A stretch of DNA of 64,000 nt from Escherichia coli (GTDB lineage Bacteria > Pseudomonadota > Gammaproteobacteria > Enterobacterales > Enterobacteriaceae). Under the pieces are notes generated by a model, which was given only the letters and a program-made list of their open reading frames with translations, searched no databases and had not been told where the DNA came from. Positions 49,654 through 52,317 of this stretch are shown here, one piece after another. How positions within the stretch are numbered: position 1 is the first letter of the stretch; the number at the start of each line of letters is the position of its first letter. A program made the translations under genes and the position numbers. The stretch lies in assembly GCF_044324875.1 (NCBI RefSeq), contig NZ_CP172185.1; one strand, written 5' to 3'.

Positions 49654-50986
<1,333 letters not shown>

Positions 50987-51004
50987 AACTTAGTTCGTTT
51001 TAAA

Positions 51005-51031
51005 GATTCTCCAGACAGTGTCTGGAGAATT
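51005..51031. repeat. Palindrome gattctccagac-agt-gtctggagaatt in yhcH/yhcG convergent gap
   Basis: Perfect 11-bp arms (attctccagac / gtctggagaat) around a 3-nt spacer; related to the two palindromes inside yhcG (51761-51834). Confidence 0.7.
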
Positions 51032-51045
51032 CGAAACCGCTGAAA

Positions 51046-52134
51046 TTAACGGCGTCTATAGCCTTCCTCTAGCACCGCCTGTGTTCGAACGAGTTCATCT
51101 GCGAGTCGTTTCTCATCAGGTAGTTGCATCTTATATTCGCTTGCCAGAACGGTGTTAGGCAAACCTGCCAGAGCATAATGCGCTTCGCCGGCTCCTTTCT
51201 CTGCACAGAGAATCAGACCGATGGGCGGATTTTCATCCGGTAGCGTCCAGTGATCTTTGGCGTAGTTGAGATACATATTCATCTGTCCGGCATCGCTATA
51301 GCTGAATTTGCCCACTTTTAGATCGACGATTAGCAGGCAGCATAAACGGCGGTGGAAAAACAGCAGATCGACACGAAACCAGTTATCATCAATGCGTAAC
51401 CTTCGCTGCCGACCAACAAAGGCAAAATCATCCCCAAGTTCCAGCATGAAATCCATCAGGTGGTTGATCAGCGCCTCCTCGAAATCAGATTCTGAATATT
51501 CATCTTTCAATTCCAGAAATTCGAGCACAAAGGGATCGCGTATCGCCTGCTGCGGAAGAATATGCGTCTCGGTAGGAGCGTGTTGTTGCAGCATGGCTGA
51601 TTTGTCATGTGACAGTAGTGTTCGCTCATAAAATTGGGTCGCAATTTGCCGCTCTAGCTGGCGAACAGACCAGCCACAGCGGAGCGTCTCTTTTTCATAA
51701 AAGCTACGAGCGTCAGCGTTTTTAACAGAAAGCAAACGGACGTAAGTGGACCAGGGCCGGGGGAAAGATTTGGCAGACAGCGTCTGCCAAATCTTTCCCG
51801 ATGGGAATTCTGCAGACGGTGTCTGCGGAATTTCAACATGTTGAAAAAAGAGGTAAAAAAGTCTCATTTGGCGCAAGTTTTTTGCAGAGAACCCACGCTT
51901 ATACCTTAGACATAAATCCTTTGATAGTCGCTTGATTAGCTGCGCACCATACGCAGCCCTGGCCTCGCCACCTTGTTCAAATTCGACAATTCGTCGGCCA
52001 ATTTCCCAGTATGTCGCGGTCATCAGCGCGTTAACGCTACGTACCGTTTCCGTCCGGGCGCTATCGACCAGGTGAATAATACCGTCGTGGATTTGCTGGT
52101 AGCCTGTTGAGGTTCTCTCTGAGAGCGATTCCAT
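51046..52134 (-). CDS. yhcG: DUF1016-family putative PD-(D/E)xK nuclease YhcG
   Basis: ORF track 51046..52134 (362 aa) MESLSERTSTGYQQIHDGIIHLVDSARTETVRSVNALMTATYWEIGRRIVEFEQ...; ATG confirmed at 52134; convergent with yhcH. Confidence 0.85.
   Translation of the reverse strand: MESLSERTSTGYQQIHDGIIHLVDSARTETVRSVNALMTATYWEIGRRIVEFEQGGEARAAYGAQLIKRLSKDLCLRYKRGFSAKNLRQMRLFYLFFQHVEIPQTPSAEFPSGKIWQTLSAKSFPRPWSTYVRLLSVKNADARSFYEKETLRCGWSVRQLERQIATQFYERTLLSHDKSAMLQQHAPTETHILPQQAIRDPFVLEFLELKDEYSESDFEEALINHLMDFMLELGDDFAFVGRQRRLRIDDNWFRVDLLFFHRRLCCLLIVDLKVGKFSYSDAGQMNMYLNYAKDHWTLPDENPPIGLILCAEKGAGEAHYALAGLPNTVLASEYKMQLPDEKRLADELVRTQAVLEEGYRRR
51761..51834. repeat. Two adjacent palindromes inside the yhcG coding sequence
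   Basis: P1 51761-51799: gggaaagatttggcagac-agc-gtctgccaaatctttccc (perfect 18-bp arms). P2 51803-51834: gggaattctgcagac-ggt-gtctgcggaatttc (14-bp arms, 2 mismatches). Both share the CAGAC-N3-GTCTG core with the intergenic copy at 51005-51031. Confidence 0.8.
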
Positions 52135-52317
52135 TATCTGTCCCTTTATATGGCGCTGCGTTGAATAATGGAATCAGCTATACGCCGGGCATCTACCGGT
52201 AACAATCCAGATGTGCGTATTACATTGGTTTTCTTCAGATTATGCGAGGCGCTTTCCAGTACGAAAGGAGAATTTCAGCGCCGACTCTTTTCTGAGGAGG
52301 CGGCGCTGGGACAGAGT

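Follow-up and report, generated by a model that had tools for sequence, protein, structure and literature searches.

A palindrome between nanQ and yhcG of Escherichia coli as a very probable extragenic member of a dyad element specific to DUF1016/YhcG nuclease genes

We examined a palindrome, here called P3, at positions 51005-51031 of a 64,000-nucleotide (64-kb) stretch of Escherichia coli DNA (contig NZ_CP172185.1 of assembly GCF_044324875.1; hereafter the window), where it lies between the convergent genes nanQ (yhcH) and yhcG. YhcG/DUF1016 proteins are among the most widespread uncharacterised nuclease families, being found in type I restriction-modification (R-M) and BREX-like loci, in integrative and conjugative elements and in phages, and P3 is very probably an extragenic member of a dyad element of about 27 bp that is specific to their genes. 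Across the family the symmetry of this element is conserved while its sequence changes, and its arms covary. As the best overall explanation we put forward, tentatively, that the yhcG-family element acts as a duplex-DNA cognate site of a YhcG dimer. An intergenic hairpin alone would be a modest finding, but this one leads to a strongly covarying element shared across the family of a widespread, uncharacterised nuclease gene, a family-level context that changes what the site is. Among PADLOC families the E. coli protein matches PDC-S02, a defence candidate (E = 3e-133), and published work discusses the family as no more than a predicted nuclease neighbouring R-M systems and mobile elements; in the literature searched on yhcG, DUF1016 and PDC-S02 we found no account of the palindrome, and Rfam contains none.

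Scanning one genome per species (100,044 species; counts cover the matches listed) with the pattern ATTNNNCAGACNNNGTCTGNNNAAT placed the element at at least 120 loci, with Legionellales, Bacteroidia, Clostridia, Acidobacteria, Myxococcales, Verrucomicrobia, Gemmatimonadetes, cyanobacteria and archaea among the matches listed. The triplets that the pattern leaves unconstrained were perfectly complementary in 81 of the 133 sites among these matches, against a chance expectation of 1/64. At about 85 of the 120 listed loci the site falls within a YhcG homologue (23-65% identity), and among the matches listed it does so in constant phase (ATT nnn CAG ACn nnG TCT Gnn nAA) and always directly before a conserved (L/F)SW(S/T)H motif in the DUF1016_N coding region. 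Homologues lacking the encoded Q-T-x-S motif have a perfect palindrome with another core at the equal place, as in aattgtcgtgacaCtgtcacgacaatt (encoding IVVTLSRQL) and aattgtgcaacgGGGcgttgcacaatt (encoding IVQRGVAQL). A first-pass annotation of the window, made from its letters alone, had taken a lack of further copies genome-wide as speaking against its reading of P3; E. coli indeed has none beyond the gltD-nanQ locus, whereas across prokaryotes we find well above 100, nearly all tied to DUF1016 genes.

The symmetry was also evident in genes chosen without regard to it. Fetching viral-contig loci by the C-terminal nuclease domain alone gave an unbiased set of 80 loci with 68 unique genes, in which the best perfect arm within the 35-codon motif window averaged 8.15 bp, against 4.24 bp in other windows and 4.33 bp in synonymous-codon shuffles, and in which arms of at least 8 bp occurred in 57% of motif windows as opposed to 3.2% elsewhere in the same genes. 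When the centre was set from the protein alignment alone, at the first base of the sixth codon ahead of the invariant Trp, at least 9 of 12 Watson-Crick pairs were present in 42 of 91 genes (control mean 3.0), and in the rest the unit is displaced by an inserted F-x-L-P segment. Among 47 distinct elements, compensatory double changes were seen at all 13 of 13 pairs, paired cells made up 89.7% (61% in shuffles, about 35% with a slid partner) and the covariation score was 0.733 versus 0.199; these 47 were picked as the best centre in their region, which inflates their pairing, so that the 68-gene arm test and the 91-gene fixed-centre test serve as the unbiased controls. The symmetry spans 13 positions on each side of one central base, giving an element of 27 bp, of which P3 has 12 perfect pairs, and some family genes possess two to four tandem units.

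Two further arrangements were seen in the family. A palindrome of the same type (IVQTLSAQL / IVSTVSTQL) occupies a second N-domain position at loci L102 (707), L103 (1254) and L185 (aa 63-71), in a helix corresponding to about residues 66-74 of the E. coli protein, upstream of a G-x-G-F-S motif. Locus L087, a 2256-nt sequence from a Myxococcales-type metagenome-assembled genome (MAG), has an open reading frame (ORF) of more than 480 codons with serial I-x-Q-T-x-S units (SQTVSAES, IIQLPSAQS, IGQTVSGQS), which may be an expanded array of the element.

Within the window, the features concerned are the following.

51005..51031, no strand assigned: P3, very probable extragenic copy of the yhcG dyad element, judged by symmetry, copy count and folding
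50987..51045, no strand assigned: convergent nanQ (yhcH)/yhcG gap, delimited by sequence, ORFs and local alignment
50522..50986, plus strand: nanQ (yhcH), last gene of the nanATEK-yhcH operon, convergent with yhcG
51046..52134, minus strand: yhcG, with DUF1016_N and a YhcG_C PD-(D/E)XK nuclease domain
51761..51799, minus strand: P1, a yhcG-internal unit whose 18-bp arms are perfect, GGGAAAGATTTGGCAGAC-AGC-GTCTGCCAAATCTTTCCC, encoding ..KIWQTLSAKSF..
51803..51831, minus strand: P2 (also delimited as 51805-51831), the other yhcG-internal unit, 13 codons (39 bp) away from P1, encoding ..EIPQTPSAEF..

P3 reads gattctccagac-agt-gtctggagaatt in the window sequence, and the sequence together with the stop-codon positions confirms that it sits, as first annotated, in a 59-bp gap (50987-51045) between the end of nanQ (50986) and the yhcG stop codon (51046-51048), 14 nt past the latter and 19 nt past the nanQ stop codon. 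The perfect 11-bp arms originally described hold if a 3-nt loop is allowed; the fuller reading is a perfect inverted repeat, ATTCTCCAGACA-G-TGTCTGGAGAAT (51006-51030), with 12-bp arms (51006-51017 and 51019-51030) around G51018. P3 fits the element class in having a CAGAC-N3-GTCTG core between ATT...AAT, like the units in the adjacent yhcG. This core, CAGACNNNGTCTG, is present three times in the 64-kb window (51012, 51774 and 51813), where 0.03 are expected and none of 100 shuffles reaches three, so the initial impression that three copies are unlikely by chance was sound, as was the resemblance to P2 (81% identity over 27 nt). Local alignment to the units inside yhcG gave 85-90% identity over 26-29 nt and no flanking homology. 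Reading in frame past the yhcG stop codon yields a 20-residue yhcG-like stretch, and we rejected the idea that P3 is the remnant of a second yhcG, the similarity being confined to the 26-29 nt palindrome; because it stops at the palindrome edges, P3 is a discrete unit and not a piece of a pseudogene.

Folding predictions gave a P3 hairpin on both strands (z -3.7 and -5.6 in an 86-nt context), with a perfect stem of 11-12 bp, six G-C pairs and no bulges on either. There is no U-tract 3' of P3 on either strand (tails TCGAAACC / UCGAAACC on the plus and CTTTAAAAC / CUUUAAAAC on the minus strand), and a scan for terminators (at least 5 T in 8 nt) left P3 unflagged on both, in agreement with the lack of a T-run remarked on earlier. 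Searching Rfam 15 returned no match at P3 and, at P1, only chance-level hits (E of at least 0.4, far under gathering scores).

Copies outside the ORF occur in a minority of family genes, at recurring places. In seven independent genes (L009, L045, L049, L064, L112, L159 and L188) a copy lies between a -10-like box and the Shine-Dalgarno sequence, and in two lineages, E. coli with P3 and L049, a copy follows the stop codon by 14-17 nt, the 3' copy of L049 having 19-bp arms and a core equal to that of the internal unit. The Clostridia gene at L049 has three palindromes in all (570 and 1670-1694): the upstream one is of the CAGAC type and belongs to a module of the 5' untranslated region (UTR) common to L009 and L045, and the internal and downstream ones have another core (CTCGACA), a mix that suggests exchange of 5' UTR modules between subfamilies. 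Orphan palindromes are found in degraded DUF1016 genes or intergenic DNA, often by type I R-M genes. At L007 (4089-4136, a Legionellales MAG), a 175-aa ORF is followed by non-coding DNA with two overlapping palindromes 23 nt apart, which is no multiple of 3; no DUF1016 gene is found within 4 kb, and similar orphans sit by type I R-M genes at L022, L086 and L101.

Turning to Escherichia, we found that P3 goes with yhcG and not with the nan operon. The element occurs in E. coli only at the gltD-nanQ locus, at 1-2.5 sites per genome across 5,121 genomes, a distribution that excludes a dispersed repeat in this species. P3 ranges over E. coli, E. fergusonii and E. albertii, together with yhcG or its remnant, and is absent where yhcG is not adjacent. 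We assign P3 to yhcG because E. fergusonii keeps the two together (in the order nanQ-P3-yhcG-gltD), because E. marmotae and Salmonella Typhi have neither a yhcG beside nanQ nor a palindrome, and because the element is single-locus in E. coli; after nanQ, both E. marmotae and Salmonella Typhi have ordinary terminators of a G+C hairpin and T-run. The P3 alleles that we recovered are all perfect palindromes (ATTCTC..GAGAAT, ATTCTG..CAGAAT and ATTCGC..GCGAAT, differing as CTC/GAG, CTG/CAG and CGC/GCG).

Inside yhcG, the unit number itself varies. P1 and P2 together encode ..EIPQTPSAEFPSG KIWQTLSAKSF.., and in most complete E. coli genomes the gene is 39 bp longer than in the window. There are two tandem units in the window (51761-51838), three in K-12 and one, two or three in other alleles (including L001 2456-2580 and L003 2225-2300), some alleles with one or two units differing in unit sequence; the spacing of tandem units is irregular, with no regular helical-phase spacing. 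Having considered whether the MLVA (tandem-repeat typing) locus CVN001, with its 39-bp repeat, is the yhcG locus, we excluded it, as CVN001 has 4-8 copies and occurs in all isolates. Palindrome unit number explains the yhcG length polymorphism used in O157 lineage typing, where it is the yhcG marker of LSPA-6 typing of O157:H7 (PMC3514354, PMC8733641).

Comparing versions of the locus revealed that the palindrome copies recombine together and serve as crossover and breakpoint sites, so that the element accounts for several structural variants of the Escherichia gltD-nanQ region. K-12 has a fourth copy, P0 (AATTCGCCAGACTGTGTCTGGCGAAT; L208 332-357, equal to MG1655 3,360,631-3,360,656), 14 nt past the gltD stop codon, and P0 and P3 bracket an 8.3-kb gltF-yhcADEF-yhcG segment; in MG1655 coordinates P3 lies at 3,368,970-3,368,994 and the internal units at 3,368,136-3,368,226. 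The window strain has neither P0 nor the gltF-yhcADEF segment, strains of its type having yhcG beside gltD, and E. coli without yhcG have a 67-bp nanQ/gltD gap with one palindrome that combines a P3-type left flank with a P0-type right flank; in strain 19KM1831 one yhcG-internal unit is identical at 27 of 27 positions to this intergenic palindrome of yhcG-less strains. In E. albertii (L211/L212 3480-3550) yhcG is cut to 125 codons and ends in a hybrid palindrome, in which the left arm and flank of P3 are fused to the right arm of an internal unit (a P1xP3 deletion) and which therefore places the crossover inside the core; this deletion junction is a natural record of recombination between palindrome copies. 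BE2-5-type E. coli have other sequence in place of the yhcG C-terminus and P3, beginning exactly at the right edge of P1, and in strain 203740 an IS1 is inserted in the P1 right arm. The replacement, of about 470 bp with a 101-aa ORF annotated as 'transposase', was seen in many E. coli genomes (L217 1605-2076, BE2-5; also H21-H23, H50, H52 and others). Two further ideas were rejected: targeting of the palindrome by the IS30 family, as the ISApl1 of strain 19AR1321 sits in the nanQ end about 35 nt away and not in the palindrome, and programmed inversion between P3 and P1, whose hypothetical junction none of 5,426 complete genomes contains.

As to what the element does, the predicted structure of YhcG offers a candidate. 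Its N-domain finds its best structural matches, weak ones (Z <= 6), in the DNA-binding domains of ParB, Spo0J and KorB, and the palindrome-encoded residues (about 98-125) form a loop of low predicted local distance difference test (pLDDT) score, the sole low-confidence stretch of the N-domain, which fits the DNA symmetry and not the peptide being what is conserved. No solved structure was found for YhcG by sequence, and no NCBIfam entry. Candidate catalytic residues of K-12 YhcG are those of the invariant D256, E-x-K273 region. We consider a binding-site mechanism possible, with considerable doubt: the element would function as duplex DNA, a YhcG dimer would bind it through the ParB/KorB-like helical N-domain, and copies inside and beside the gene would let the nuclease be controlled autogenously, targeted in cis, or both; if P3 also acted on the yhcG or nan 3' ends as an RNA hairpin, that would be secondary. 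Of the roles suggested on first annotation, a site for a dimeric regulator is the best-fitting one, with YhcG itself, in preference to a nan regulator, the most likely protein. A broader proposal, which we regard as rather doubtful, is that DUF1016/YhcG (PDC-S02) genes hold the recognition, loading or cleavage site of their own nuclease. Such a cis-element would mark its own gene, its dyad symmetry being what is retained in bacteria, archaea and phages, and would make that gene an autoregulated or selfish unit, with P3 and P0 steering YhcG to the locus borders and so driving insertion and deletion of the gene and its neighbouring islands. The dyad element in the gene is in any case a concrete candidate for the YhcG recognition target and a handle on gene function. 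It is also a strikingly clear example of protein sequence in a coding region giving way to a nucleic-acid constraint.

Several points weigh against a YhcG-bound duplex site. The likeness to ParB and KorB could be a generic helical match, and a protein site does not obviously need symmetry at all 13 half-site positions. Full covariation is more typical of base pairing, in a hairpin or cruciform, or of self-correcting template switching, and is the main argument against a simple protein site; hairpin, cruciform and template-switch readings stay alive because the covariation is complete. All placements, whether in the 5' UTR, in the ORF or just past the stop codon, are inside the yhcG transcript, which fits an RNA-level role too. 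Most family members have the internal copy only, so an operator-pair model is not general, and the upstream copy of L049 differs in core type from the internal one. The excess of A:C over G:T mismatches described below may also stem from codon constraints and not from selection.

Whether the element is read as DNA or as RNA separates the YhcG-site explanation from an RNA hairpin, in which P3 would act in the 3' UTRs of yhcG and nanATEK-nanQ as a barrier to 3' exonucleases or a weak bidirectional terminator, and the ORF and 5'-UTR copies of homologues would be hairpins for mRNA stability, processing or translation control, possibly bound by YhcG. This we judge unlikely, though much is consistent with it: a stable fold is predicted on both strands, stop codons precede P3, P0 and the L049 3' copy by 14-19 nt, the 5' copies abut the Shine-Dalgarno sequence, the arms covary strongly, and the E. 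coli gap has no other terminator-like structure after nanQ where relatives have canonical terminators. That every placement lies in the yhcG transcript and that the hairpin folds well also fit an RNA role. We nevertheless read the element as DNA and not mRNA, because pairing reaches the bases flanking the central nucleotide, which an RNA loop cannot use (the pair next to the centre is Watson-Crick in 69%, with exceptions that are almost all transition mismatches), because sense-strand mismatches (G:T 58 vs A:C 95) give no excess of G:U-compatible wobble on the mRNA strand, and because the stems are long and perfect, without the bulges typical of regulatory RNA hairpins; a perfect 12-18-bp stem in an ORF would moreover impede translation. 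A shared transcription terminator, as first proposed, is not supported, there being no U-tract, no flag in the scan and no K-12 3' end listed in the gap (PMC7815308), and the element being found also in ORFs and 5' UTRs, where termination would be harmful. The K-12 gap (3,368,9xx-3,369,0xx) has no 3' end in the Term-seq tables of Adams et al. 2021, in which both units are poorly expressed (PMC7815308), and the SMRT-Cappable-seq supplements have no entry for the nanQ/yhcG genes. On the nan strand, a Rho-termination region lies inside yhcG at MG1655 3,368,581 (-), some 430 nt past the nanQ stop codon (PMC7815308), which suggests, weakly given the low expression, that transcripts read through P3.

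Another way to account for the symmetry is as a functionless by-product, the palindromes maintaining themselves through intra-strand template switching and short-homology recombination, and P3 and P0 being footprints of rearrangement tolerated in non-coding gaps. The recombinogenic copies (the E. albertii P1xP3 deletion, the P0/P3 junction, the variation from one to three units), the breakpoints at the P1 edge in BE2-5-type strains, the IS1 inside P1, the orphans that persist near R-M genes without a DUF1016 gene and the perfect symmetry of all P3 alleles, as template-switch correction would yield, are all in keeping with this. A neutral process, however, fails to explain why one codon position is kept across phyla, archaea and phages with many cores, or why unrelated lineages have their extragenic copies at the same functional places (by the Shine-Dalgarno sequence, past the stop codon), and P3 has been retained by E. 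fergusonii and E. albertii as well as E. coli. We think a pure by-product improbable, and even if the element were only a self-perpetuating structure it would still be a notable example of a mutational mechanism moulding a protein family over very long periods. An att-like or cassette site, at which a site-specific recombinase or YhcG itself would insert or excise yhcG or the gltF-yhcG island, is suggested by the P0 and P3 flanks of the 8.3-kb K-12 segment, by an empty site with one hybrid copy, by the cassette-like layout of ORF then palindrome and by the crossover within the core in E. albertii. It seems very unlikely when set against the lack of a recombinase gene in any version of the locus compared, the lack of attC-type R/L boxes and extrahelical bases, the window-type strains with yhcG by gltD and no P0, and the missing P3xP1 inversion junction, and short-homology recombination explains the observed events equally well. 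The slimmest chance goes to an operator for NanR, NagC or another dimeric regulator of the nan or glt operons, which has nothing in its favour beyond dyad symmetry and a location between nanQ and yhcG/gltD: the site is at operon 3' ends, Salmonella and E. marmotae lack it after nanQ, among the matches listed from unrelated genomes nearly all copies go with DUF1016 genes, and the GGTATA repeats that NanR recognises are absent here.

Known systems resemble the yhcG element in part. The parS site lies inside spo0J, the gene of its own binding protein, and sopC of plasmid F has 12 units of 43 bp; parS, sopC and the KorB operators are perfect palindromes bound by ParB/KorB-type dimers, which yhcG may parallel in the predicted structural matches of its N-domain and in its 39-bp unit spacing, while P3 shares neither the parS consensus TGTTNCACGTGAAACA nor the KorB operator TTTAGCSGCTAAA. 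Sites embedded in their own gene include the lambda ori iterons in gene O, the pT181 origin hairpin in repC and lac O2 in lacZ, and the likeness there is of a dyad DNA site, at times tandem, that encodes a flexible inter-domain stretch, here the low-confidence loop, with a peptide that follows from the DNA symmetry; unlike lambda ori and pT181, nothing points to replication initiation by YhcG or to the locus as a replicon, and most yhcG-type genes are single-unit. As a stable stem-loop a few nucleotides past two converging stop codons P3 looks like an intrinsic terminator, from which it differs in having no U-tract and no 3' end listed in the K-12 tables, and in recurring in ORFs and 5' UTRs; relatives have true terminators after nanQ. 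Repetitive extragenic palindromic (REP) sequences and bacterial interspersed mosaic elements (BIMEs) are short palindromes, imperfect to perfect, that lie in 3' intergenic DNA, where they may stabilise the mRNA upstream and join in rearrangements; REP sequences are dispersed, in hundreds of copies and with another consensus, whereas the yhcG element has one E. coli locus and one gene family across taxa. Rickettsia palindromic elements (RPEs), which like other MITE-like palindromes are inserted into genes in frame and are reportedly translated in tolerant protein regions (Ogata et al. 2000), are 100-150 bp long, mobile and spread over many unrelated genes of one genus, in contrast to 27 bp at one homologous position of one family prokaryote-wide. 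Integron attC sites likewise place a palindrome right after an ORF, one copy per junction whether empty or occupied, but the yhcG element has no R''/L''-L'/R' boxes, extrahelical bases or integrase, and its main copy is inside the ORF.

The surroundings of P3 in the window are, in order, nanK, nanQ/yhcH (plus strand), yhcG (minus strand) and gltD (minus strand, from 52318). In K-12, a divergent non-coding RNA, G0-10703, overlaps the 5' end of yhcG (PMC7967276), and a Rho-termination region is reported at MG1655 3,367,906 (+), 79 nt inside yhcG on the sense strand (PMC7815308). Just downstream of the gltD stop codon, the window has a G+C-rich inverted repeat, CAGCGCCGACTC / GAGGCGGCGCTG (52276-52308), which probably serves strains of this type as the gltD terminator; at the same position K-12 has other sequence, P0.

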